A DNA stretch of 64,000 nucleotides from Candidatus Gottesmanbacteria bacterium (lineage in GTDB: Bacteria; Patescibacteriota; Microgenomatia; UBA10105; UBA927). The stretch covers positions 872,019 through 936,018 of the forward strand of contig JAHFKK010000001.1 in assembly GCA_023245335.1 (NCBI GenBank). The letters run 5' to 3'. The notes below the pieces were generated by a model. The model was not told where the DNA came from. It did not search any database and saw nothing but the letters and a program-made list of their open reading frames with translations. This document shows, piece by piece, positions 6,108 through 19,479 of the stretch (its first letter is position 1; each line of letters opens with the position of its first letter). Position numbers and translations under genes: made by a program.

Positions 6108-7931
6108 ATGTCACAAATCTTGAATGAAAAATTGGGAAAGCTCACGAAAGACGAACAGCATCTCTGGGCGCTTCGCCATACTGCCGAGCACATACTGCAT
6201 CAGGCGGTAAAGGATTTGTATCCGTCCATACTTCTTGCCATGGGCCCGGCGACGGATGAAGGATTTTATTTTGACTTCGATCACTCGCCAAAAGGAAAAA
6301 CGCCGGTTAAGATTTCCGACGAGGATTTACCGAGAATCGAGAAACGGATGCAGGAAATAATCGACGCCAACCTTCCGATGATACGGGAGGAAGTAGCCCC
6401 AGACGAAGCGGCCAAACTCTTTGCGGGCAACCCGTACAAAATGGAATGGATAGATGAAATCAAAAAGCGCGGAGAAAAAGTGACGATATACTGGACGGGT
6501 GAACCACATCAGCCCGGCTCCATGGTAGACCTCTGCGGCGGACCGCATGTCAAATCCACAGGGGAAGTGAGGGCGTTTAAGCTACTTTCGGTAGCCGGTG
6601 CATACTGGCATGGGAGTGAGAAAAACAAAATGCTCACGAGAATTTATGGGACGTGCTTTCCTTCTAAAAAAGAACTCGATGAACATCTTCATAATCTCGA
6701 AGAAGCCAAAAAAAGAGATCACCGCAAACTCGGTAAGGAACTGGGACTCTTCGTCTTCTCCGACCTGGTCGGTGCAGGACTGCCGCTCCTCACGCCGAAA
6801 GGCGCTACCATCCGACGGATACTCGAACGGTTCATCGTCGACGAGGAACTGCGTCGCGGATACCAGCACGTCGTCACCCCGCCGCTTGCGAAAGTAGATC
6901 TCTACCGTACCAGCGGGCACTACCCGTACTACAAAGACACGATGTATCCGCCGATGAAAGTCGACGATGACGAACTCATATTGCGTCCGATGACCTGTCC
7001 GCATCATTTCATGCTGTACAAATCACAGTCCAGGAGTTACCGGGATCTGCCGGTACGCTTCGCCGAGATTTCCCCGCAGTTCCGGTATGAAAAAAGCGGC
7101 GAACTCACGGGGCTTATGCGGGTCCGGATGTTTACGCTGACCGACGCGCACATCATAACACCGCCGAAAAAAGCCAAAGCTGAAGTTCTTGCCGTTTTGG
7201 ACCTCATTGACTACATAAACAAGTGTTTTGGGTTGGTCAAAGGCACGGATTACCGCTATCGGCTTTCTTTGGGGGATCGCAAGGACAACAAAAAATATTA
7301 CAAGGATGACGCTGCATGGGATAAAGCAGAGTCGGTACTTCGCGAGGTACTTGTCGAATCCAACGCGCCGTTTTTTGAAGCGCCCAACGAAGCGGCTTTT
7401 TATGGCCCCAAGATCGACGTCCAGATGAAAAACGTCTCGGGCAAAGAAGAAACCGCATTTACCGTACAGTATGACTTTGTCATGCCGAAACGGTTCGACC
7501 TCACCTATATCGACTCGGACGGCAAGGAAAAACAGCCGGTCGTCGTTCACCGGGCCAGTATGGGAGCTCTGGAGCGGACGATGGCGTTTCTCATCGAGCA
7601 CTATGCCGGGGCATTTCCGTTGTGGCTCGCGCCTATCCAAGCCGTCGTCATACCGATTGCTGAGCGTCATAACGATGGCGCTCAAATGATCGTTGATGCA
7701 TTGAAAGCCGCCGGCATCCGGGTCGAATCCGATACGCGGAGCGAACCTATGCAGGCTAAAGTACGAGATCATACGTTGCAAAAGGTGCCGTATTTGGCTA
7801 TAATCGGTGATAGAGAAATCGAAAACAAAACGGTTTCCGTTCGGAAACGGGGGATGAGGGAACTTCAAGCGCTTGCGCTTAGTGACTTCATCGCCCAATT
7901 AGTACACGAGATTGAACAGAAAACCAATTAA
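6108..7931 (+). CDS. thrS: Threonyl-tRNA synthetase (class II), lacking the N-terminal TGS domain.
   Basis: N-terminal HTAEHILH (HxxxH editing-domain zinc motif). Class II core motifs (FRYEKSGELTGLMRVRMFTLTDAH). C-terminal anticodon-binding domain. Followed by infC-rpmI-rplT-pheST as in many bacteria. Confidence 0.85.
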   Translation: MSQILNEKLGKLTKDEQHLWALRHTAEHILHQAVKDLYPSILLAMGPATDEGFYFDFDHSPKGKTPVKISDEDLPRIEKRMQEIIDANLPMIREEVAPDEAAKLFAGNPYKMEWIDEIKKRGEKVTIYWTGEPHQPGSMVDLCGGPHVKSTGEVRAFKLLSVAGAYWHGSEKNKMLTRIYGTCFPSKKELDEHLHNLEEAKKRDHRKLGKELGLFVFSDLVGAGLPLLTPKGATIRRILERFIVDEELRRGYQHVVTPPLAKVDLYRTSGHYPYYKDTMYPPMKVDDDELILRPMTCPHHFMLYKSQSRSYRDLPVRFAEISPQFRYEKSGELTGLMRVRMFTLTDAHIITPPKKAKAEVLAVLDLIDYINKCFGLVKGTDYRYRLSLGDRKDNKKYYKDDAAWDKAESVLREVLVESNAPFFEAPNEAAFYGPKIDVQMKNVSGKEETAFTVQYDFVMPKRFDLTYIDSDGKEKQPVVVHRASMGALERTMAFLIEHYAGAFPLWLAPIQAVVIPIAERHNDGAQMIVDALKAAGIRVESDTRSEPMQAKVRDHTLQKVPYLAIIGDREIENKTVSVRKRGMRELQALALSDFIAQLVHEIEQKTN

Positions 7932-8469
7932 GTTTTACAGGATCAATTACCAAATCCAAAGCCCGCAAATACGGCTTTTGGATGAAAAGGGCAATCAGAT
8001 CGGCATTGTCTCCAAAATAGAGGCATTGCAAAAGGCGAAGGAATTGAGTTTGGACGTAGTCGAGATCGCAGGAAACGCCAAACCTCCGGTTGCGAAGCTT
8101 ATCGATTTCAAGAAGTTCAAGTACCAGGAATCCAAAAAAGAGCGTGAGAGCCGCAAAAACGTTAAAAACGTCGGCGTCAAAGAAATACGATTGCGTCCGT
8201 TTATCGAACAGCATGACTTTGACACCCGCTTGAAGCGCGCGCAGGAGTTTATTGACGACGGCAACCAGGTCAAAGTGACCGTTTTGTTTAAAGGCAGGGA
8301 ACTCGGAAGAAAGCAGTTCGGATTTGAAGTCATGAACCGCTTTATCGCTTCCGTAACGGGTGCGAAGACGGTACGGGATCCGCGCATGGAAGGGCGAGTA
8401 CTTGCTTCCATGGTGGTTCCGGATAAAAAGGGAGATACGAAAGAAAAAGCCGAAATAATCGAAAAATAA
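7912..8469 (+). CDS. infC: Translation initiation factor IF-3.
   Basis: INYQIQSPQIRLLDEKGNQIGIVS and the C-terminal domain match IF3. The ORF begins with TTG at 7912 and overlaps the thrS stop; an in-frame ATT at about 7927 is an alternative start. The true start is uncertain. Confidence 0.8.
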   Translation: MNRKPIKFYRINYQIQSPQIRLLDEKGNQIGIVSKIEALQKAKELSLDVVEIAGNAKPPVAKLIDFKKFKYQESKKERESRKNVKNVGVKEIRLRPFIEQHDFDTRLKRAQEFIDDGNQVKVTVLFKGRELGRKQFGFEVMNRFIASVTGAKTVRDPRMEGRVLASMVVPDKKGDTKEKAEIIEK

Positions 8470-8474
8470 CGCAT

Positions 8475-8672
8475 ATGCCAAAACTGAAAACCAAAAAAAT
8501 AGCGGCGAAGCGATACAAAGTAACCGCGACAGGCAAACTGGTACATCGGGTACAGGGAGCACGCCACCTGCGGCGCCGCAAAGACAAACGCCGGCAACGC
8601 CGGCAGGACCGGGAAATAGTACTAAGTAAGAGCATGGCCAAACACGTTCAACGATATTTACCGTATCGGTAA
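8475..8672 (+). CDS. rpmI: 50S ribosomal protein L35.
   Basis: MPKLKTKKIAAKRYKVTATGKLV is a typical L35 N-terminus. Position between infC and rplT. Confidence 0.85.
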   Translation: MPKLKTKKIAAKRYKVTATGKLVHRVQGARHLRRRKDKRRQRRQDREIVLSKSMAKHVQRYLPYR

Positions 8673-8682
8673 GGAGGATCTT

Positions 8683-9033
8683 ATGAGAGTCAAACGGGGC
8701 ACCACATCACGAGCGAAACACAATAAATTATTCCAGGCGAACAAAGGATATCGCATGACCAAGCGCCGGCTTACTTCCGTCGCGACAGAAGCATACCTGC
8801 ATGCCGGAGAATACGCATTTGCAGGACGCAAGAACCGCAAACGCGACTTCCGCGAACTTTGGATTACCAGAATTTCCGAAGCGGTCAAGCTTCGGGGCCT
8901 CTCCTACAGTTCATTTGTACACAAACTCAAAGAAGCCAATATTGAGCTTGATCGGAAAACACTTGCAAATCTTGTCGTCGACGATCCGGATGTATTCGAT
9001 TCCATTCTTGACGAAATAAAATCCGTCAATTAA
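8683..9033 (+). CDS. rplT: 50S ribosomal protein L20.
   Basis: MRVKRGTTSRAKHNKLFQANKGY is a canonical L20 start. GGAGG Shine-Dalgarno upstream. Confidence 0.9.
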   Translation: MRVKRGTTSRAKHNKLFQANKGYRMTKRRLTSVATEAYLHAGEYAFAGRKNRKRDFRELWITRISEAVKLRGLSYSSFVHKLKEANIELDRKTLANLVVDDPDVFDSILDEIKSVN

Positions 9034-9134
9034 GATATTCTGTACATGCAAACCCAAAGATTTTTCTTTTGTTTCTTTACCTCGCACAAGCGGGGTTCTT
9101 TGGGTGAGTAAAAAGAAACAACATAATCCCAAGG

Positions 9135-9157
9135 ATCCCGCGAAAGCGGGATTTTTT
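9135..9157 (+). terminator. Rho-independent terminator after rplT.
   Basis: ATCCCGC-GAAA-GCGGGAT stem-loop followed by TTTTTT. Confidence 0.6.
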
Positions 9158-9229
9158 GTGGTTGAGGAGCAGTACATCTCCTTTTCCTGAAATCCCGCAG
9201 AACGGATTCCGGAAAGGAGGTGATTAGTC

Positions 9230-9469
9230 GTGACACATAGAAGAAAAACAATGATGCATCATTTAGAGGTATTGGCGAGCGGAAAAGAAGGGCCGGGTTA
9301 TCAGATAAGTCCGAAGCTTCTCAACTCAACGGTTTTTTTAGAATGGAGGAGGAATCTCGTCCACTCCGGGACGAATGAACACAGACAACGGATGAGCCTG
9401 CTTGTCGGAGACAAACGGGTCAGAGAGGCATTGGACCTCAATGTTCTGGAAGGGAATCACGGTTCATAA
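9230..9469 (+). CDS. Hypothetical small protein (79 aa) between rplT and pheS.
   Basis: GTG start preceded by AGGAGG 9 nt upstream. Flanked by a terminator upstream and a long hairpin downstream. No recognisable domain. Confidence 0.3.
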   Translation: MTHRRKTMMHHLEVLASGKEGPGYQISPKLLNSTVFLEWRRNLVHSGTNEHRQRMSLLVGDKRVREALDLNVLEGNHGS

Positions 9470-9482
9470 GGGAATCAAAAAA

Positions 9483-9539
9483 AGAAGAGGGCCCGGCCGG
9501 CCCGCTTCGACTCAACGAGGCGAGCAGGCGGGCCCTCTT
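9483..9539 (+). other. Long GC-rich imperfect hairpin (about 57 nt, 12-bp outer stem GAAGAGGGCCCG/CGGGCCCTCTTC), possibly a terminator or 3' stabiliser.
   Basis: The inverted repeat ends 2 nt before the pheS -35 box. Only a short T-tract follows it. Confidence 0.45.
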
Positions 9540-9540
9540 C

Positions 9541-9570
9541 TTGCCAAGATTGTAGCGCGAAACGTACAAT
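9541..9570 (+). promoter_or_regulatory. Sigma70-like promoter for pheST (TTGCCA, 18 nt, TACAAT).
   Basis: -35 at 9541-9546 and -10 at 9565-9570, 12 nt before the pheS ATG at 9583. Confidence 0.45.
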
Positions 9571-9582
9571 GATTATATTGGT

Positions 9583-11418
9583 ATGACTGATCTAATATAT
9601 CTTACGGACAGTTATCAAAAGGAGCTAAAAACCAAAGTGGTAAGCGCCGAAAAGCGCGGAAACCTTTGGGAGGTGGTACTCGCGTCAACCGTTTTCTATC
9701 CCGAAGGCGGGGGTCAGCCGTCAGATCGCGGAACCATAACAACGAAAAACGGTAAAGCTCACGTAAAACACGTACGAATGAAGGGAGAACTGGTTATCCA
9801 TGAGTGCACACTCGAAGGTATGCTAAAGCCGGACGACGATGTGCAATGCGTGATCGACTGGAACCTCCGCTATCATAACATGCGCGTCCACAGTGCCGGC
9901 CATATCGTGCATGAAGCAATCAAAAAAATCTCACCATCCCTTCTCCCGAAAAAAGGTCACCACATGGACTCTGCCTATATCGAATATGCCGGCAGTTTAC
10001 CGATAGACAAAAAATATGCCATCGAACAGGAATCAAATACTATCGTGGGAGACAAGCTTCCCCTAAAAACAGAGCTTGTCACACTTGCAGAACTCCAAAG
10101 ACGAAGCCCATGGGCACCCGAACACTTACCCAAAAACAAACCACTCCGTATATTATCGATCGGTGATTTGGCTCCTATCCCCGACGGCGGCACACAGGTA
10201 AAAACTAGCGATGAGGTCGGGCCCATCACAATCACCAATATAGATAACGCAGGAGACGTAGTTCGGGTATATTACAGTATACAAACTGAAGGACCGAAGG
10301 AAGCGAGTATTGAGTCGGAAAATTCGATGAAGGCTCCTGCATTTATCGGCCTTTTGCTGGAAGCACAACAAAATGCAATCCGTGAAATGGAAACGAGCGA
10401 TGCTTCCGCATTCGAACTCCGTTTGCAGCTCCTGGGACCTAAAAGCGAACTGACGGCGCTCACCCGTCAAATGCGGCAGGTCCCTGCGGCAGACCGTCAA
10501 CAGGTAGGCATAGTGGTGAATCAGGTAAAAAAGGCAATTGAGGAAAAACTGACCGAACGCAAAACTCCCTCTTCTTCGCCAAACAAGACACCGACCATTG
10601 GTACGGCACGCACCGACACATTTGACGTCACCATGCCCGGTATACGGCCGCCGGCTGGGCACCTCCATATAGTGAGCCAGGCAATCATGGAAATTACCCG
10701 CATTTTCGAACGCATCGGCTTCACCCGAGTGCGATACCCAGAAGCTGATTGGGACTGGTATGCATTCGAGTCTCTGAATATGCCCGTAAATCATCCAGCC
10801 CGAGATGAATGGGAGACATTTTTCATCGACTATCCCGGCAAACCGGGCAAAGACCCGCATAAACAAAAGATGGTTCTGACGCCACATACTTCAAACGGTC
10901 AGGTCCGCGAAATGGAAAAGGGGAACCTCCCCATACGCATGATCAATATAGCCAAATGTTACCGGCGCCAGATAGACGTCTCTCATACGCCCATGTTTCA
11001 CCAATTTGAGGGATTGTATGTCGATAAAAATGTCTCTATAGCGCACCTCAAAGGGGTCTTTGATTATTTCGCCGGAGCTTTTTTCGGGCCGGGCCGCAAA
11101 ACGCGCTTACGGCCGTTTCATTTCCAGTTTACCGAACCGTCATTTGAAGTAGACATCACCTGCGGCATCTGCAATGGCACCGGGATACTCGCAGGCGGCA
11201 CAAAATGCCGCTTATGTAAGTCCGGCTGGCTGGAACTGGGCGGCTCCGGCATGGTGCACCCAAACGTTCTTCGAAACGGCGGCATCGATCCTGACGTCTA
11301 CTCGGGATTTGCGTTCGGTTGGGGAGTAGAGCGGACCGCAATGATGAAATCAGGAACACAACTTGATGATATCCGATTGCTTTACGATAACGACGTACGG
11401 TTTTTGGAACAATTTTAA
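9583..11418 (+). CDS. pheS: Phenylalanyl-tRNA synthetase alpha subunit fused to an N-terminal AlaX-M-like (AlaRS/ThrRS-type editing, tRNA_SAD) domain.
   Basis: Residues 1-235 carry FYPEGGGQPSDRG (AlaRS/AlaX beta-barrel signature) and HSAGHIVH (HxxxH). The second zinc motif is degenerate (DGGTQ in place of CxxxH). Residues from about 260 onward are a complete PheS: coiled coil, HPARDEWETFF, motifs 2/3 FRxE and GFAFGWGVERTAMM. 611 aa versus the usual 340. Confidence 0.8.
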   Translation: MTDLIYLTDSYQKELKTKVVSAEKRGNLWEVVLASTVFYPEGGGQPSDRGTITTKNGKAHVKHVRMKGELVIHECTLEGMLKPDDDVQCVIDWNLRYHNMRVHSAGHIVHEAIKKISPSLLPKKGHHMDSAYIEYAGSLPIDKKYAIEQESNTIVGDKLPLKTELVTLAELQRRSPWAPEHLPKNKPLRILSIGDLAPIPDGGTQVKTSDEVGPITITNIDNAGDVVRVYYSIQTEGPKEASIESENSMKAPAFIGLLLEAQQNAIREMETSDASAFELRLQLLGPKSELTALTRQMRQVPAADRQQVGIVVNQVKKAIEEKLTERKTPSSSPNKTPTIGTARTDTFDVTMPGIRPPAGHLHIVSQAIMEITRIFERIGFTRVRYPEADWDWYAFESLNMPVNHPARDEWETFFIDYPGKPGKDPHKQKMVLTPHTSNGQVREMEKGNLPIRMINIAKCYRRQIDVSHTPMFHQFEGLYVDKNVSIAHLKGVFDYFAGAFFGPGRKTRLRPFHFQFTEPSFEVDITCGICNGTGILAGGTKCRLCKSGWLELGGSGMVHPNVLRNGGIDPDVYSGFAFGWGVERTAMMKSGTQLDDIRLLYDNDVRFLEQF

Positions 11419-11420
11419 CC

Positions 11421-13442
11421 ATGAACATCCTGGTACCCGATAGCTGGCTGAGAAAATTTTTGAAGACGAAGGCAACGCCATCGCAACTGAAGGAGTATCT
11501 CTCCTTGTGTGGTCCATCGGTTGAACGGATTTACGAGGAGTCAGGCGAGCCAGTGTATGACATAGAAATTACGACCAACCGCCCGGACGCAATGTCCGTC
11601 TTTGGCGTCGCCCGGGAAGCTTCCGTCATCCTGCCGCGGTTTGGTGTCGCAGCGACGCTCCTTCATGATCCCTATGCGACCAAATCTCTGAAGGATAAAA
11701 CGGTCAAATCGGATACCGCGCTTTCCGTCACGACTGATCCTTCCCTCAATCCGCGATGGACCAGTGTCATTATAAAAAATACTACGGTGAAGGACTCTCC
11801 GAAATGGCTTACGGACTGGCTGACCAAAACCGGCATCCGGCCCATAAATACCATCGTTGATGTCACGAACTACCTCATGCGGGCCTATGGCCAACCCGCA
11901 CACGCATTTGACTATGATCGCATCGGCAAAAAAAATGGCGTGCCGACCATGAAATTGCGCGCGTCCAAAAAGGGAGAACGGCTCACCACGCTCGATGGAA
12001 AAACTCATACGCTACCGGGTGACGACATCGTGATTGAAGACGGTACCGGAAGACTTATCGACCTATGCGGCATCATGGGAGGGGACAATTCAAGCATCAC
12101 TGACACGACGACAAGCGTTATCCTGTTTCTTCAGACCTACGATGCCGCCCATATCCGCAGGACATCCATGAAACTTGGGCACCGCACCGAGGCTGCATCG
12201 CTCTTTGAAAAAGGAGTAGACAGCGAGCTTGTTTTACCGGCTCTCCTTACCGGCATCACACTACTTAAAGAAATAGCAGGAGGCACGACTGAAGGTCCGA
12301 TCTATGATCTGTATCCCTCGCCGTACAAACCATATGCGGTATCCGTCAAGCACGACAAGGTACATAGCTATATCGGTAGAGCGTTATCTGACAAAGAAAT
12401 CACGGCGATCCTTTCTTCATTGGGTTTCGAACCCAAGATAACGAAAACAGACATAACGGTTTCCGTACCGAGTTTTCGCCGTGATGTCGCGCTCGATGTC
12501 GACGTCATCGAAGAAATTGCACGGATATACGGATACCACAACATACAAAATCGTCTGCCCCAGGGGGAGATGCCTTCGGCCGGTACTGATAACGAACTCA
12601 CGTGGGAAGAGGAAGTCAAAACGCGTCTCCGCGACTGGGGATTTACCGAACTTATTACGTACTCGATGATATCCGAAAAAACTATGGATCTGTTTGAGCA
12701 GGACAAAAATAAGGCGTACAAAATAAGCAATCCGCTATCAGTTGATTGGGTGTATATGCGCCCTCATCTCATACTAAGTATGCTCGATGTCGTACGGCAA
12801 AACCTGAATACACGGCCCCAATTACGGCTGTTCGAACTTGGAAACGTCTATAAATACCGCCACAACGACTTACCGCTTGAGGTGCCGACGCTTATGGTCA
12901 TTTGGACCGGACGTCATTTTCTGAAAGCAAAGGGGCTTGCCGAATCACTCCTCAATCTTTTCGGGCTTGACCCGGACGCCGTCTTTGCGGAACGGAGTGA
13001 CCAGCCTCTCGCATGGTACAACGACCGGAGACTATCCATCGGCCCATTCGGTTCGCTCGGGGAATTAAGCGACGAAAAACTTGCCGCTGCAGGAATTAAG
13101 GCACCGGTTACACGCGTGTATTTGGATTTTGCCATGCTCGCGGCTCACGCAAAATCCATGAAAAAATACATCACGGTGCCCAAGCATCCGCCGTCTGTTG
13201 AGGATCTTGCGTTTATCGTACCTGGCGGCTTTGCCATAGGTCCTCTCATGACGGCGCTCAAACACGCGGATCCGAAAGTATGCGCGGTAGAGCTTCTTGA
13301 CATACACGACAGCACACGCACGTTACACATCACCTATCTCGATCCCGCAAAAACGCTGACGAGCGATGATATTGCCGGGATCAGGAGAAAATTACTTGAT
13401 GTCGCGAAGAAAAAGTTTCACATCGACCTGAAAACGAATTAA
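11421..13442 (+). CDS. pheT: Phenylalanyl-tRNA synthetase beta subunit, short form lacking the B2/EMAP OB-fold tRNA-binding domain.
   Basis: The B1 domain (ITTNRPDAMSVFGVAREASV) begins near residue 40 with no intervening OB-fold. B3/B4, B5, B6/7 and the C-terminal FDX-ACB-like domain are present. 673 aa versus about 800. Confidence 0.8.
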   Translation: MNILVPDSWLRKFLKTKATPSQLKEYLSLCGPSVERIYEESGEPVYDIEITTNRPDAMSVFGVAREASVILPRFGVAATLLHDPYATKSLKDKTVKSDTALSVTTDPSLNPRWTSVIIKNTTVKDSPKWLTDWLTKTGIRPINTIVDVTNYLMRAYGQPAHAFDYDRIGKKNGVPTMKLRASKKGERLTTLDGKTHTLPGDDIVIEDGTGRLIDLCGIMGGDNSSITDTTTSVILFLQTYDAAHIRRTSMKLGHRTEAASLFEKGVDSELVLPALLTGITLLKEIAGGTTEGPIYDLYPSPYKPYAVSVKHDKVHSYIGRALSDKEITAILSSLGFEPKITKTDITVSVPSFRRDVALDVDVIEEIARIYGYHNIQNRLPQGEMPSAGTDNELTWEEEVKTRLRDWGFTELITYSMISEKTMDLFEQDKNKAYKISNPLSVDWVYMRPHLILSMLDVVRQNLNTRPQLRLFELGNVYKYRHNDLPLEVPTLMVIWTGRHFLKAKGLAESLLNLFGLDPDAVFAERSDQPLAWYNDRRLSIGPFGSLGELSDEKLAAAGIKAPVTRVYLDFAMLAAHAKSMKKYITVPKHPPSVEDLAFIVPGGFAIGPLMTALKHADPKVCAVELLDIHDSTRTLHITYLDPAKTLTSDDIAGIRRKLLDVAKKKFHIDLKTN

Positions 13443-16033
13443 GGAGTGGGAGCAGGAGCAGACGTCGGGGTCGCATATGCCTGGTTCACCCCGATATGGA
13501 CATCCCGGTCTGACGACGTGCCTCGTTTATCCACAGCATGAACATGTATCGTGTACTGCCCGTTGGACACGTTGAATGATTGGGAAAAATTCTTGTCCGA
13601 CGACTCTTTCGTTGTCCCATTCATGGTGACCTGAACCTTATCTATGTCGGCTGTCGAAATGACCTCGCCGGTAACCGTCACATTGTTATCACTTACCTGG
13701 CTCTGATCTGACGGAGATTTGATATTGATGACGATCTGGTTCGTGCCGTTATAGGTGTCCGTCGGCGGCTTGTATTTACCGTTGTCGCCCAAACCGTTTA
13801 TCCAGGCATTAATTGCGTCCTGCCAGCGGTTTTTGCCGTCGCCGGACACGGGATCGTCTTCTTTAAATACAATGAAATCCTTTTGATCATAATCGCCGGT
13901 CGCAACTTCCACGGGATTAGCAAGCTTACTCGAATCGTGATGGGAAATCTTGAGTTTCTGATAGATGACTGCTGGCCCCGTGGGTTCCGTTCCTTTGACA
14001 AAATATTCCTTTCGTTTCGGCTGTCCGTCTACCGGCAACCCGCCGCCGTAGCCGTCTATGTCCATTTGTATGACAGTATCCGGCTGAGTGAATGGCGCGT
14101 CGGGCAAATCTTTAATCGCGGCTTTCATAATCCGGTTCCAGATGGGGGCGGCACCGGTAATGCCGGAGGCAAGCGCAGGATTCATAGGAGAATTATCGTT
14201 ATTACCGACCCACGTCACGACCACCCGGTCTTTGGTGTATCCTGCGGTCCAGTTATCCCGCTTGTCATCCGTCGTACCGGTTTTGGCAGCGACCGTGCGG
14301 CCGGGAATCACTAAGTAGGAATTTGGTCCGAATTCGTCTTTCCTGGCGTCGTTATCAGAAAGAATCGATGAAATGATATAAGGAATAGACGGATCAAGGA
14401 CTTGCCTCGGAGGTGTCTGTTTATACTCATAGAGTATTTTCCCTTTCGTATCGGTCACTTTCAGAATCGCGACAGGGTCCATACGGTTGCCACCGGTCGC
14501 AAGAGTCCCGTATGCGACCGCTTCATCGATCATATGCACTTCAGCTCCACCCAAAGGAAGCGAGAGCCCGACACGCTTAAGCATTTCATCGGTCGGTTGC
14601 CAGGTGGACACTCCCATGTCGTACCCTAACTTCAGAATGTCCTTGACCCCGACGAGCGCCGTCATTTTCACTGCGACAGTGTTTATGGAATTGCCCAACG
14701 CATACCGCATTTGTATAGGCCCGCGGAATTTCCCGTCATAATTTTTGGGCTCATATTCCGGCTTCGTTGGATCCCCGGAAGGATATTTGGTATCGACATC
14801 CATAAGGAGGGCAGAAGCGGTGTATCCCTTGGAAAGGGCGGCCGCATAAATAATAGGTTTGAGCGACGAACCGGGCTGACGCTCCGCCTGAATAGCAACG
14901 TTATACTTGAGCCCCGAGCTATCGGTCGAGCTATAGTCTTTACTTCCCACCATGGCCAGAATTTCTCCCGTGTTGGGATTCAAAACGAGCGCGGCTCCGT
15001 TACTTACTTTCAATTTTTTTGCTTTATCGACTTCTTCACGGACTACGGTTTGTGCGGCTTCCTGCAAGTTCCAGTCAAGAGTAGTTGTCACCGTGAGACC
15101 GCCGGCATTCACTATTTTTTCACCTAACTGCTGTATCAACAACTCTTTGACGTACTGGACGAAATGCGGCGCCCGCAAATCCGAACCAGGAGAGGAGAAT
15201 GTAAGTGAAGGCAACGCATTATCCGCCTGTACTTCCTGAGACGCAGTAATATACCCGTCTTCCCGCATACGGCGAAGCACGTGCTGAGCTCTCGCAATGT
15301 ACGCTTTCGCATCACCGGTAAACGGCGAATAATAACTCGGGGACTGAGGAAGACCCGCGAGGACCGCACACTGTACCAGCGTCAGATCCTTGACCGGTTT
15401 GCCGAAATAGTCTTCTGCCGCAGCCTTCACTCCCGCAGCAGTCCCTCCATACGGCGCTTCATTGAGGTACATGAGAAGAATGTCGTTTTTGCTGTATTTA
15501 CGCTCGATTTGGATCGCGAGGATAGCCTCTTTTATCTTGCGGGGGAGTGTGCGTTCCTGTGACAAAAGAACTGTTTTCACGAGTTGTTGCGTAAGCGTTG
15601 AACCGCCCTGAAGAACTCCACCTGAAAAAACGTTGCTTAAAAGCGCACGGATGATGCCGGTCGTTGATAATCCCTGATGCTTATAGAAATCTTTATCTTC
15701 GACCGCGACCGTTGCATCCCTCAAGTATTGCGGTACTTCATCCCAGGCCGCCGGTATACGGTCGGCCTCCTGGAATATGTCATACAGCTTCACACCGTTT
15801 CTATCCAAAACGACAGTCGAAAGCCCTGTCGTCCGCTGCACTTTATCCGGTCGGGGAAGATCGCGCGAATACCAGGCAAAGAGCCCGATGACAAATATGA
15901 TGCCGACGACAAATGCGATGAATCCGCCGTAGACCAAACGGCTTATGAGGGTAATTCGTGCAGTTCTCGTTCCAAAAAGCTTTCGGCGCTGGCGATCGAG
16001 GTAGAAATCAAACATTTGAACCACATCCTTCAT
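13439..16033 (-). CDS. Class A penicillin-binding protein (bifunctional glycosyltransferase/transpeptidase) with a C-terminal Ig-like extension.
   Basis: GT51 motifs EDKDFYKHQG and GGSTLTQQLVK. Transpeptidase motifs SSLKP (SxxK) and KTGTT. N-terminal TM anchor. The ORF is open to 16114, but starting there would overlap the divergent tyrS; the MKDVV start at about 16033 is preferred. Confidence 0.8.
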   Translation of the reverse strand: MKDVVQMFDFYLDRQRRKLFGTRTARITLISRLVYGGFIAFVVGIIFVIGLFAWYSRDLPRPDKVQRTTGLSTVVLDRNGVKLYDIFQEADRIPAAWDEVPQYLRDATVAVEDKDFYKHQGLSTTGIIRALLSNVFSGGVLQGGSTLTQQLVKTVLLSQERTLPRKIKEAILAIQIERKYSKNDILLMYLNEAPYGGTAAGVKAAAEDYFGKPVKDLTLVQCAVLAGLPQSPSYYSPFTGDAKAYIARAQHVLRRMREDGYITASQEVQADNALPSLTFSSPGSDLRAPHFVQYVKELLIQQLGEKIVNAGGLTVTTTLDWNLQEAAQTVVREEVDKAKKLKVSNGAALVLNPNTGEILAMVGSKDYSSTDSSGLKYNVAIQAERQPGSSLKPIIYAAALSKGYTASALLMDVDTKYPSGDPTKPEYEPKNYDGKFRGPIQMRYALGNSINTVAVKMTALVGVKDILKLGYDMGVSTWQPTDEMLKRVGLSLPLGGAEVHMIDEAVAYGTLATGGNRMDPVAILKVTDTKGKILYEYKQTPPRQVLDPSIPYIISSILSDNDARKDEFGPNSYLVIPGRTVAAKTGTTDDKRDNWTAGYTKDRVVVTWVGNNDNSPMNPALASGITGAAPIWNRIMKAAIKDLPDAPFTQPDTVIQMDIDGYGGGLPVDGQPKRKEYFVKGTEPTGPAVIYQKLKISHHDSSKLANPVEVATGDYDQKDFIVFKEDDPVSGDGKNRWQDAINAWINGLGDNGKYKPPTDTYNGTNQIVINIKSPSDQSQVSDNNVTVTGEVISTADIDKVQVTMNGTTKESSDKNFSQSFNVSNGQYTIHVHAVDKRGTSSDRDVHIGVNQAYATPTSAPAPTP

Positions 16034-16096
16034 TGTAGCTACGATTGACAAAAATGACAAATTACGGAGGAAATATGGTATAGTGAATACGATTCT

Positions 16097-17293
16097 ATGG
16101 ATGCAATTGATCATCTACTTACACGCGGTGTCGATAGCATATACCCCAACCGTGAAGCGCTGGAAAAAGTACTTCGGAGCGGCAGGAAACTCCGGCTTTA
16201 CCAGGGATTTGATCCTACCGGCCCGCAGCTTCATATCGGACACGCGGTGGCGCTGCGAAAACTTCGGGAATTCCAGAAATTAGGCCATCACGTGATATTT
16301 TTGATCGGTGATTTCACAGGTATGATCGGGGATCCGACCGGTAAACTCTCGGACCGAAAAATTTTAACAAAAGAAACGGTGTCGGAAAATGCAAGAACAT
16401 ACAAAGAGCAGGCGTCCAGAATTCTTAAATTTGACGGCGACAATCCGGTAGAAATACTTCATAACAGCGACTGGTTAGGAAAAATGCCGGCGTTTGAATT
16501 TTTGCGAATCGCAAATCTCTTGTCCGTTCAACAAGTGGTCGAACGGGATATGTTTCAGGAACGCATAAAAAAGGACCAGGATATATTTATGAATGAGTTC
16601 CTGTATCCGGTTCTGCAGGCCTATGATTCGGTAGCTATGAACGTCGATCTTGAGATCGGGGGCTCGGACCAGATGTTTAACATGATGATGGGGCGAAAAC
16701 TCATGCGTCACATGCTTAAGAAAGAAAAATTTGTCATGACCGTGCCATTGTTAACTGACGCGAATGGAGTCAAAATCGGCAAAACAGAAGGGAACGTCAT
16801 CGGTTTGACGGATGCCCCAAATGAATTTTACGGCAAGATTATGTCATTGGGAGATGATGCCATCATTCCGTGCTTTAGGCTTTTAAGCGATGCCTCAGAT
16901 TTGGAAATCAACGCTATGAAAAAGAGCGTGTTGGCTGGAGAAAACCCAATGAACTTTAAAAAGAAACTGGCTTTTGAACTTACCAAGCAATTCAATTCGG
17001 AAAAAGAGGCAGCAGTCGCGCAGGAGGAATTTGAAACCCGTTTCCAAAAAGGCCAAATTTCGGAGGCGGCACTCCCGACCATGTCCATGAATTCCATGAA
17101 AACGAACTCATCGATCGTCGAGTCTCTTGTTTCTCTGGGGCTCGTCTCTAGTAAATCCGATGCTAAGCGCCTGATCGAGCAAAAAGCAGTCAAAGTAAAT
17201 GGGGGAGTCGTCGCGACATTTAAAGATGCCGCGAAACTTAAGCCGGGGGATACGGTTGAAGTTGGCCGGAAAGCTGTTAAAATAGTTTCTTGA
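16097..17293 (+). CDS. tyrS: Tyrosyl-tRNA synthetase.
   Basis: HIGH motif (QLHIGHAV), KIGKT (KMSKS-like), and a C-terminal S4 domain. Confidence 0.8.
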   Translation: MDAIDHLLTRGVDSIYPNREALEKVLRSGRKLRLYQGFDPTGPQLHIGHAVALRKLREFQKLGHHVIFLIGDFTGMIGDPTGKLSDRKILTKETVSENARTYKEQASRILKFDGDNPVEILHNSDWLGKMPAFEFLRIANLLSVQQVVERDMFQERIKKDQDIFMNEFLYPVLQAYDSVAMNVDLEIGGSDQMFNMMMGRKLMRHMLKKEKFVMTVPLLTDANGVKIGKTEGNVIGLTDAPNEFYGKIMSLGDDAIIPCFRLLSDASDLEINAMKKSVLAGENPMNFKKKLAFELTKQFNSEKEAAVAQEEFETRFQKGQISEAALPTMSMNSMKTNSSIVESLVSLGLVSSKSDAKRLIEQKAVKVNGGVVATFKDAAKLKPGDTVEVGRKAVKIVS

Positions 17294-17424
17294 TATGAAC
17301 TTCTTCCGCAAACACGAAAAATTTTGGAAAGTGGTCGTCGTCATAGCATCCGTCGCGCTTATCCTGTCGTCCTTTATCCCGCTTCTTGCGGGCGGACTCC
17401 GGTAATTCGCGATATAATCTCCTC

Positions 17425-19479
17425 ATGGAGCTCTCTCTCAATTCTTCCGTCCAGTATGTTCCCCGCGTCGGGCCCTCCATGGCAGGTAAACTACGAAATC
17501 TTGGCATAGAGACTGTCTATGACCTTTTGACATACGTACCGTTCCGTTATGACGATTATTCCCTGATTTCGCCCGTTGCCCGTGTGCAGCCCGGCGAAAC
17601 CATCACTGTTCTGGGGACGCTCACATCCATAAAAACATTCGTTACCAAGCATGGCAAACGGCTAGTGATGGCACGACTGACCGACGACACCGGACATATC
17701 GATATCGTCTGGTTTAATCAACAATACCTCGTAAAGGTATTACATCCGGGAGACACACTAAGTGTTTCGGGCAAGGTCGACTGGTTCGGACCCAAATTCG
17801 TATTCTCATCACCCGCCTATGAGGTCATTCATGATGAAGAAGGGAAGGGGAGTCTCCATACCGGACGGCTTGTACCGGTCTACTCTGAAACTGCCGGATT
17901 ATCTTCAAAGTGGCTTCGCGGACGCATAGATTATGTCCTTACCCATTGTCTCTCGCTCGTCACGGACCGGTTGCCAAAAGAAATCATAGAAAAAGAACAG
18001 CTCATGAATGTACGCGAAGCGATCCAGACCGTGCATTTCCCTGATAGTGCGGAGTCGGCCGACCGCGCCCGGGAAAGACTCGCGTTTGATGAGTTATTTC
18101 TCCTTCTTTTGCGTGCGTATGAACAAAAACATCTGTGGGACACCACACTCAAAGCGCATCCGCTTGGCGTGTTTGCGCCCTCCCTTCTTGCCTTTGAAAA
18201 AGCATTGCCCTTTACCCTCACGACCGACCAAAAAACCGCTATACAGGAAATTCTCAAAGACCTCGCCCGAAAAATCCCCATGAACCGGTTATTGGAAGGC
18301 GACGTAGGAAGCGGAAAAACCGTCGTTGCCTCAGCCGCCATGTATGCCGCGTATATAAACGGACAAAGCTCCATCCTCATGGCACCAACCCAAATCCTCG
18401 CGGAACAGCATTTTCAGACGTTGCAAATGATATTGAAGCCACTCGGCATCGAGACTGGGCTCGTCATCGGGGGACAGAAAAAGTCTAAACAGATCGAAAC
18501 GAAGACGGCACGCATCCTGGTCGGCACGCACGCTCTTTTGACTTCGGACATTTTACCCCGCAAAATCGGGTGCATCGTCATAGACGAACAGCAACGCTTC
18601 GGGGTCAATCAGCGCGCAGAACTTCGTAAATTAACTCACACGGCATTTACCCCTCATCAGCTCACTATGACGGCAACCCCCATCCCGCGAACACTCGCAC
18701 AAACGGTGTTCGGAAACGTAGATCTTTCGGTCCTCATAAGCCTCCCAAGCGGCAGGAAGCCAGTGAAAACCTGGGTTGTCCCGCAAACGAAACGCGCAGC
18801 CGCCTATGCCTGGATAGACAAAGAGCTCACGAAAGACCGTTCACAGGCATTTATCGTCTGTCCGCTTATAGATGAATCTGAATCGTTAGGCGCTGTAAAA
18901 GCCGCGACAGCAGAATACGCCCGTCTCAAAGAGCGTGTATTCCCCAAGCGCACCGTGGGCCTTTTGCATGGACGGATGAAATCGGACGAAAAAACAGCGG
19001 TACTCGACGCATTCCGCCAAAAATCCATCGACATCCTCGTCAGCACCCCGGTCGTAGAGGTTGGCATCGACATCCCCAACGCCACGATTATGGTTATTGA
19101 GGCAGCCGAACGGTTTGGACTATCGCAACTCCATCAACTACGGGGGCGGGTCGGCCGGAGCGATAAATCATCGTACTGTCTCCTGTTCACAGAGAACGAG
19201 ACCCCGGAGGTCATGACGCGCCTCAAGGCGCTTGAATCTGTGCACAACGGACCGAAACTCGCTGAACTCGATTTGACGCTTCGCGGACCCGGAGAACTGT
19301 TTGGAACCCGTCAACACGGTGTGCCGGGCCTGACGCTTGCACGTCTTACGGATACTGCGATGGTAGCCCGTGCCAGGCGCTCTGTCGGATCATTAGTTAC
19401 CAAAGACCCGAACCTTACTGCGTTTCCCCACTTGAGAGAAATCCTCGATCAGAGTAAAATAGACAGTATCAAAGACTAA
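17425..19479 (+). CDS. recG: ATP-dependent DNA helicase RecG.
   Basis: Wedge and N-terminal domains, Walker A GDVGSGKT, DEQQRFGV, and helicase motif VI QLRGRVGRS. The ORF is open from 17386; the internal Met at about 17425 is the likely start. Confidence 0.8.
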   Translation: MELSLNSSVQYVPRVGPSMAGKLRNLGIETVYDLLTYVPFRYDDYSLISPVARVQPGETITVLGTLTSIKTFVTKHGKRLVMARLTDDTGHIDIVWFNQQYLVKVLHPGDTLSVSGKVDWFGPKFVFSSPAYEVIHDEEGKGSLHTGRLVPVYSETAGLSSKWLRGRIDYVLTHCLSLVTDRLPKEIIEKEQLMNVREAIQTVHFPDSAESADRARERLAFDELFLLLLRAYEQKHLWDTTLKAHPLGVFAPSLLAFEKALPFTLTTDQKTAIQEILKDLARKIPMNRLLEGDVGSGKTVVASAAMYAAYINGQSSILMAPTQILAEQHFQTLQMILKPLGIETGLVIGGQKKSKQIETKTARILVGTHALLTSDILPRKIGCIVIDEQQRFGVNQRAELRKLTHTAFTPHQLTMTATPIPRTLAQTVFGNVDLSVLISLPSGRKPVKTWVVPQTKRAAAYAWIDKELTKDRSQAFIVCPLIDESESLGAVKAATAEYARLKERVFPKRTVGLLHGRMKSDEKTAVLDAFRQKSIDILVSTPVVEVGIDIPNATIMVIEAAERFGLSQLHQLRGRVGRSDKSSYCLLFTENETPEVMTRLKALESVHNGPKLAELDLTLRGPGELFGTRQHGVPGLTLARLTDTAMVARARRSVGSLVTKDPNLTAFPHLREILDQSKIDSIKD

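Follow-up and report, generated by a model that had tools for sequence, protein, structure and literature searches.

AlaX-type domains are proofreaders of the alanine and threonine systems, and to our knowledge the only reported attachment of one to another synthetase is a decayed copy in the tryptophanyl-tRNA synthetase (TrpRS) of the malaria parasite. In this study, we analyzed a 64,000-nucleotide stretch of a Candidatus Gottesmanbacteria genome (the window), in which pheS, the gene for the α subunit of phenylalanyl-tRNA synthetase (PheRS), encodes an AlaX-type module in front of the synthetase proper and is followed by pheT for the β subunit. The module has the length of the AlaX-M proteins of Pyrococcus horikoshii (PH0108, 2E1B) and P. 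furiosus (9IUW), and shares with them the Gly-rich β-barrel (FYPxGGGQxxD) and an editing core with HxxxH as the first metal motif and GGT at the center of the second. It differs from them in that Asp replaces Cys and Gln replaces His, so that the CxxxH motif is not formed, in scoring under the NCBIfam equivalog cutoff and in being covalently joined to PheRS α. The cis-editing domains of AlaRS and ThrRS (tRNA_SAD superfamily) have the same fold, and in ThrRS an editing-type domain also lies N-terminal to a class II catalytic core; in the predicted structure, however, the module is joined by a flexible tether rather than by a packed interface.

The nearest published analogue is the apicomplexan TrpRS, in which an AlaX-family domain (AXD) is likewise linked N-terminally to a non-Ala synthetase (PMC3240968, PMC3680381). 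The Plasmodium falciparum domain (Pf-AXD) is, at 155 aa, of AlaX-S size and retains none of the four metal ligands (replaced by D, S, N and V), whereas the window module is of AlaX-M size and carries conserved potential ligands (His, His and Asp) at three of the four positions. A linker of 72 residues follows Pf-AXD, and the domain is required for binding tRNA and for aminoacylation but not for editing (PMC3680381). Canonical bacterial PheRS (T. thermophilus 1PYS/2IY5, E. coli 3PCO) shares with the window enzyme the coiled-coil and core of the α subunit, the B1, B3/B4, B5, B6/7 and B8 domains of the β subunit, and the editing residues R244, N254, H265, T354 and A356 (E. coli numbering). The window β subunit differs in the absence of B2 and in having Phe in place of Glu334 with a Gln two residues on, and the α subunit differs in its extra 250-aa N-terminal module. 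An AlaX-type module on PheRS appears to be undescribed: full-text literature searches (AlaX with PheRS, fusion, candidate phyla radiation, Patescibacteria) found no description of such an architecture, in agreement with a preliminary description of this locus, and database entries name the fusion proteins plainly PheS or PheT.

The AlaX-M-type module of PheS

The pheS open reading frame (ORF) encodes 611 residues, which profile searches divided into an AlaX-type part and a PheRS α part. The NCBIfam model AlaXM (NF040865) spanned residues 2-233 over its whole length (positions 1-233 of 234; E=4e-39), with a score of 134.7 bits that lies below the equivalog cutoff of 300 bits. The C-terminal β-barrel part of Pfam tRNA-synt_2c matched residues 18-94 (model positions 474-551 of 552, E=6.9e-15), and the start MTDLIYLTDSY matches the N-terminus of AlaX-M. 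Pfam tRNA_SAD reached 17.3 bits at residues 188-228, under its gathering score of 24. The remainder of the protein was recognized by Phe_tRNA-synt_N (278-328, E=2.1e-14), by tRNA-synt_2d as the core (347-611, E=2.8e-78) and by TIGR00468 (pheS; 257.2 bits, cutoff 237.45), which identifies it as PheRS α. A CxxC-x11-CxxC insert in this core (residues 527-545, nt 11161-11217) looks like a zinc-ribbon-type insertion, and all four of its Cys are unchanged throughout a family alignment of 65 sequences.

Residues 1-245 were modeled by AlphaFold with a predicted local distance difference test (pLDDT) score of 94.6, exceeding 90 across most of the editing core. The model superposed on the β-barrel and editing region of P. 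horikoshii AlaRS (2ZZF) with a template modeling (TM) score of 0.86. Foldseek matches included AlaRS, AlaX-M and AlaX-S as well as a structural mitoribosomal protein, with TM scores of 0.83-0.86 to the AlaRS editing region and of 0.75-0.86 over the fold matches. In the full-length model the domains were again confident, with a predicted TM score (pTM) of 0.44 overall and pLDDT below 50 at residues 237-246; in this monomer prediction the module is tethered, not docked. When the protein was aligned to PDB sequences with phmmer, IPDGGTQVK fell onto IPCGGTHVK of Pyrococcus AlaX-M (2E1B, 9IUW), which places Asp at the Cys and Gln at the His of the second metal motif.

Full-length fusions made up 117 of the 120 closest protein clusters (50-77% identical), and all named clusters among the 120 belong to Ca. 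Gottesmanbacteria or Patescibacteria. One fusion, L002, was 62% identical to that of the window over the AlaX module. The MAG records of L002, L003 and L007 are titled 'uncultured Gammaproteobacteria' or 'Pseudomonadales' despite Patescibacteria-type operons, and these labels look wrong. In all 117 fusions H103, H107, H127, Y39, Q45, D48, G203 and T204 are invariant; G43, G50, D201 and G202 are each kept in 116, Q205 in 113 and H110 in 112. The mean column identity was 0.66 for the module and 0.81 for the PheS core, compared with 0.41 for the coiled-coil and 0.31 for the linker (the 234-277 stretch), which ranges from 33 to 85 aa among the homologues.

The preliminary description had assigned an AlaX-type N-terminal region to the 611-residue protein, had quoted the motifs FYPEGGGQPSDRG (residues 38-50 in our analysis), HSAGHIVH (103-110) and DGGTQ (201-205), had named the two substitutions in the second zinc motif, and had pointed to profile searches and a survey of related genomes as checks. 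The region, the motifs and their places, and the substitutions were borne out, as was the occurrence of the fusion in related genomes; among the profiles, AlaXM and tRNA-synt_2c answered while tRNA_SAD stayed below threshold. It had also suggested that the active site is 'degenerate or altered'. Altered it is, but degenerate does not fit: since the motif is nearly invariant in 117 fusion homologues, DGGTQ is a selected variant and not a decayed site.

It is vanishingly improbable that the long pheS results from an assembly error or frameshift joining two genes. Such an artefact has no direct support, although separate genes do occur in another lineage (L003, below), and it is contradicted by 117 fused full-length ORFs drawn from NCBI, ENA, JGI and Logan assemblies, some on contigs longer than 1 Mb (1.22 Mb for a protein identical to that of the window). 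In every one of these ORFs the linker keeps the reading frame, and its length differs among them. The pheS gene is a true, clade-wide gene fusion of a complete AlaX-M-type module with an otherwise normal PheRS α.

Asp-variant AlaX-M proteins and their linkage to PheRS

An exhaustive HMMER search with residues 1-245 against 1.84 billion representatives returned 7668 matches, 41 of them below 1e-30, and the scan of genome collections for loci represents a sample, not a census. Alignment of the best matches revealed a subfamily, mostly of Patescibacteria, with Asp at the Cys position (DGGTQ, DGGTL, DGGTI, DGGVH, DGGVQ, DGGIQ), in which the fourth ligand position varies among Q, H, L and I. This subfamily sits beside canonical CGGTH AlaX-M-like proteins. 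H127 recurs in most of the bacterial AlaX-M-like relatives that are free-standing. In archaeal-labelled free-standing AlaX-M-like proteins of Woesearchaeota and Thermoplasmatota (L013, L014, L024; P0229, P0252, P0258) the motif reads DGGTH, in which Asp replaces Cys but the His is retained, and therefore the Cys-to-Asp change is not confined to Patescibacteria.

Judged by gene architecture, the Asp-variant subfamily occurs in four forms. Many members are free-standing proteins of about 240 aa, e.g., L004 (Roizmanbacteria), L005, L007 and L089. In L003 the module is a separate 239-aa gene with its own stop in the pheST operon; a NUDIX gene comes next, and then pheS in complete form and pheT without B2. 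Besides the fusions related to that of the window, more distant ones at the PheS N-terminus were found among the 50%-identity representatives (P0113, P0124, P0127, P0129, P0131, P0134, P0138, P0142, P0170, P0223). The fourth form is a fusion to the C-terminus of PheT, seen five times (P0125, 909 aa; P0141; P0157; P0146; and P0135, a fragment). P0146 (1089 aa, from a JGI metagenome) is a PheT without the N-terminal B2, in which B8 is followed by a tRNA_bind domain (B2-type OB) and then by the Asp-variant module. The β-fusions of L081 and L082 lie in an infC-rpmI-rplT-pheS-pheT operon with a PheS of normal size (327-334 aa), and downstream of that of L081 the PBP1A(-)/recG synteny is the same as in the window. 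A small NUDIX hydrolase gene stands directly 3' of the module in the split operon of L003 (6714-7064) and of the PheT C-terminal fusion of L081 (5963-6436). NUDIX was rejected as a constant partner of the module, being adjacent in these two loci and not beside the free-standing genes.

The motif signatures follow these architectures. DGGT[QLI] belongs mostly to α-fusions and DGG[VI][HQ] mostly to β-fusions, together with L003 and free forms, while the α-fusion P0223/P0391 groups among canonical CGGTH proteins. A neighbor-joining tree likewise separated a DGGT clade from a DGG[V/I] clade. This tree was rough, and the count of independent fusions rests mainly on architecture and motif signatures; by these, the module was joined to PheRS at least twice and probably four or more times. 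Such repeated joining speaks in favor of selection for closeness to PheRS. In the top 150 representatives no other synthetase was seen with a comparable fusion, odd single cases aside. Two odd AlaX-M-like architectures, P0269 (595 aa) and P0241 (678 aa), were noted as well; the odd architectures comprise a class-V aminotransferase with a canonical CGGTH module and an AlaX-like region with a Snf7 domain.

PheT and the setting of the locus

The window PheT aligned to residues 3-35 of T. thermophilus PheT and then from residue 153 onward, skipping about 36-152. PF01588 (tRNA_bind) had no match in this protein and was also missing from all 120 of its closest PheT relatives. TIGR00472 (pheT_bact) scored 443.7 bits against a cutoff of 402.65, with only model positions 160-797 of 798 matched, and Pfam placed B5 at residues 307-372, tRNA_synthFbeta at 375-569 and FDX-ACB at 587-670. 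These alignments indicate that B2 is absent from the window PheT and that B1 is continuous. Hence the short pheT noticed in the preliminary description, with B1 uninterrupted by a B2 insertion, holds for this protein, and its 120 relatives are likewise without B2.

With the PheT part of a β-fusion as query, about 90 further B2-less PheT clusters were found (570-695 aa), the named ones being Microgenomates and Amesbacteria; none of them except the query's own cluster has an AlaX domain. In the same search, B2-containing PheT appeared only at Chloroflexota-level distance. B2-less PheT is thus, as far as these sequences tell, general in the wider Microgenomates group. Many of its members, of 570-636 aa (P0404, P0405, P0453, about 35 others and L083; e.g., Amesbacteria), had no Pfam FDX-ACB match, and such Microgenomates PheT may be without both B2 and a recognizable B8. 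The genomic context of B2-less PheT was sampled in four lineages. In three of them (L083, from Amesbacteria, L085 and L086) the partner is an ordinary PheS of about 335 aa in an operon without an AlaX gene, and in the fourth (L084) it is an α-fusion. Conversely, the AlaX-PheS fusion of L087 adjoins an 860-aa PheT with tRNA_bind. Because B2-less PheT pairs with ordinary PheS and the L087 fusion pairs with a B2-containing PheT, the earlier suggestion that the module compensates for the missing B2 is unsupported, and we rejected it as a general explanation. The loss of B2 would instead be an older trait of this bacterial group, unrelated to the fusion.

The B3/B4 editing site was mapped onto T. 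thermophilus numbering in the 120 closest PheT relatives. R240, T249, N250, H261, G315, T354 and A356 are conserved in the clade; in the window protein R140, T149, N150, H161 and the RTEA motif are kept. In all 120 members, however, one strand carries E334 to F, A336 to Q and F338 to Y. From the Tyr-editing set of E. coli (R244, N254, H265, G318, E334, T354, A356) six of seven residues are retained, the exception being E334, which is Phe. In a published study of the B3/B4 site, R244 is reported to bind C75, while N254 and T354 hold catalytic waters, H265 stacks on Tyr and Glu334 recognizes the Tyr hydroxyl (PMC8599791). Therefore the catalytic machinery of B3/B4 is, to judge from these residues, kept with an altered discriminator, and the role of Glu334 might have passed to Gln336, which lies on that face of the strand. 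The L003 PheT also has Phe at this position, and Glu334 is retained in other B2-less Microgenomates PheT, including the partner of the L084 α-fusion and all β-fusions. A coupling of the AlaX link to the Glu334 change was rejected on account of these last two cases.

The coordinates of the features are collected in Table 1. The gene order thrS-infC-rpmI-rplT-pheS-pheT is that of the classic cluster. The gap between rplT and pheS (9034-9582, 550 nt) contains four features: a terminator-like hairpin with a T-run at about 9126-9157, a possible 79-aa ORF at 9230-9469 with a GTG start and a strong AAGGAGGTGA Shine-Dalgarno sequence upstream, a GC-rich long hairpin at about 9485-9543, and a promoter-like TTGCCA-18-TACAAT at 9541-9570. 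The gap gave no Rfam match, and no T-box, other RNA leader or tRNA gene was found in the window. alaS is not among the window genes, and tRNA(Phe) and tRNA(Ala) were not found in the 15 related loci scanned, in which the sole tRNA was a tRNA-Val in L083. The ThrRS has kept its tRNA_SAD editing domain, and no TGS (N1) domain was detected in it at E<1e-5. Downstream, the order pheT / PBP1A (minus strand) / tyrS / recG (13439-19479) is common to the distant Microgenomates contig L085, and tyrS (16097-17293) lies close to the PheRS genes in the window.

Table 1. Positions of the pheS-pheT features and of the upstream genes in the window
Feature	Residues	Nucleotides	Strand	Remarks
thrS		6108-7931		ThrRS, 607 aa
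infC		7912-8469
rpmI		8475-8672
rplT		8683-9033
pheS fusion gene		9583..11418	+	611 aa; AlaX-M-like module, tether, helical arm and class II PheRS α core
AlaX/AlaRS-type β-barrel subdomain	1-92	9583..9858	+	Pfam tRNA-synt_2c, conserved motif, fold match
Gly-rich motif FYPEGGGQPSDRG	38-50	9694-9732	+	within the β-barrel subdomain
AlaX editing-core subdomain	93-233	9859..10281	+	NCBIfam AlaXM, AlphaFold, Foldseek
First metal motif HSAGHIVH (H103, H107, H110)	103-110	9889..9912	+	aligns to HxxxH of AlaX-M
H127 in K-G-x-H motif	127	9961..9963	+	117/117 in family
Variant second metal motif DGGTQ	201-205	10183..10197	+	at the CGGTH position
Disordered tether, module to helical arm	234-250	10282..10332	+	low pLDDT, variable length
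PheS N-terminal helical (coiled-coil) arm and connector	251-345	10333..10617	+	Pfam; model helices 251-327
PheRS α class II catalytic core	346-611	10618..11415	+	Pfam tRNA-synt_2d, TIGR00468
pheT		11421..13442	+	673 aa; PheRS β subunit without B2 (tRNA_bind/EMAP-like OB)
Junction at the site of the missing B2 insertion	36-44	11526..11552	+	B1 continuous
B3/B4 editing domain	111-287	11751..12281	+	Pfam B3_4, E=7.9e-52
Remodelled B3/B4 strand F236-L-Q238-T-Y240		12126..12140	+	equivalent to T. thermophilus E334-V-A336-C-F338
B5, catalytic-like module (B6/7) and FDX-ACB (B8, anticodon-binding)		12339..13430	+

Function of the module

We propose, with a probability of about one half, that the module is a still-active metal-dependent aminoacyl-tRNA deacylase that is tethered and recruited to PheRS. 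We place retained or altered editing activity first among the readings in view of the strong conservation of the pocket, which is under strong purifying selection in the fused and the free forms. In addition, a triad of His, His and Asp could plausibly act as a catalytic metal site, as is known from zinc hydrolases in general. The triad would serve as the metal site of the deacylase, and the short disordered tether, which is predicted to run from the module to the beginning of the helical arm by which PheS binds tRNA, would keep the module on PheRS as a recruited proofreading factor. We infer that catalysis was retained and that the module is linked to PheRS because it acts on tRNA that this enzyme handles. 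A bolder version, which we regard as doubtful, is that the Asp-variant module is an active deacylase of new specificity acting on tRNA(Phe). PheRS would then have two unrelated post-transfer editing sites, and in the window clade, with Phe for Glu334, B3/B4 and the module may have divided or swapped substrates.

Several observations weigh against an active, recruited deacylase. Neither the Cys nor the His ligand of the canonical second motif is left, and the fourth position is variable, so that metal binding is not assured. In the β-fusions the module follows the anticodon-binding B8 after a short linker; judged by the T. thermophilus complex, this places it a long way from the CCA end, a position ill suited to cis-editing. 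Free-standing Asp-variant genes (L004, L005, L007, L089) are not near pheST, pointing to a life independent of PheRS, and operon adjacency by itself offers an opportunity for neutral fusion. We also know of no mischarging by PheRS of the small amino acids that AlaX removes. Finally, the only AlaX-like domain studied on a non-Ala synthetase, that of Plasmodium TrpRS, is non-catalytic (PMC3680381).

This precedent leads to an alternative that we consider unlikely but still worth weighing, namely that the module is a non-catalytic tRNA-binding appendage which raises tRNA(Phe) affinity or aminoacylation and possibly offsets the lost B2 (and B8 in some lineages). As in Pf-AXD (PMC3680381), a flexible linker (here disordered at 237-246, pTM 0.44) leads to the N-terminus of a non-Ala synthetase. 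The replaced Cys and His, the variable fourth ligand position, the window PheT without B2, the position of the module beside the anticodon-binding domain in β-fusions and the use of the same fold in a structural mitoribosomal protein would all suit such a role. However, both His ligands, the Asp, H127 and the Gly-rich motif are essentially invariant, unlike in Pf-AXD, which is unexpected for a domain that binds only the RNA body. An offset for B2 also agrees poorly with the many B2-less PheT that have no AlaX link, with the B2-containing partner of the L087 α-fusion and with P0146, which has a tRNA_bind domain in addition to the module.

It is rather improbable that the module is an ordinary trans-editing factor for Ser/Gly-tRNA(Ala), fused by chance or for co-expression or stability, with no function specific to PheRS. 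In its favor, the flexible tether would permit action in trans, Asp-variant genes stand alone away from pheST, and an operon neighbor such as the gene of L003 could become fused through a small deletion. R228, at the offset of the AlaRS Arg that presumably reads G3:U70, is R or K in 97 of the 117 fusion homologues and variable in the β-fusions, and does not settle the tRNA specificity. The closest characterized relatives, AlaX-M and the AlaRS editing domain, do act on tRNA(Ala) (PMC11295145). Chance fusion is nevertheless hard to reconcile with a module found on two subunits, at opposite termini and in different subclades, including one with canonical CGGTH, unless proximity to PheRS was selected; the near absence of comparable fusions to other synthetases from the top 150 representatives argues the same way.

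The fusion is genuine, is widespread within one lineage of a candidate phylum, and shows an editing-type domain of the AlaX family appended to a synthetase. On several occasions, and on either subunit, PheRS has gained a well-preserved AlaX-type copy, and recurrent fusion usually signals a functional partnership. The His-His-Asp site would be a natural experiment on the metal chemistry of the editing fold. If the module is active, it would represent a new proofreading reaction that involves tRNA(Phe), or else a proofreader of the alanine system stationed on another synthetase, in organisms with minimal genomes.

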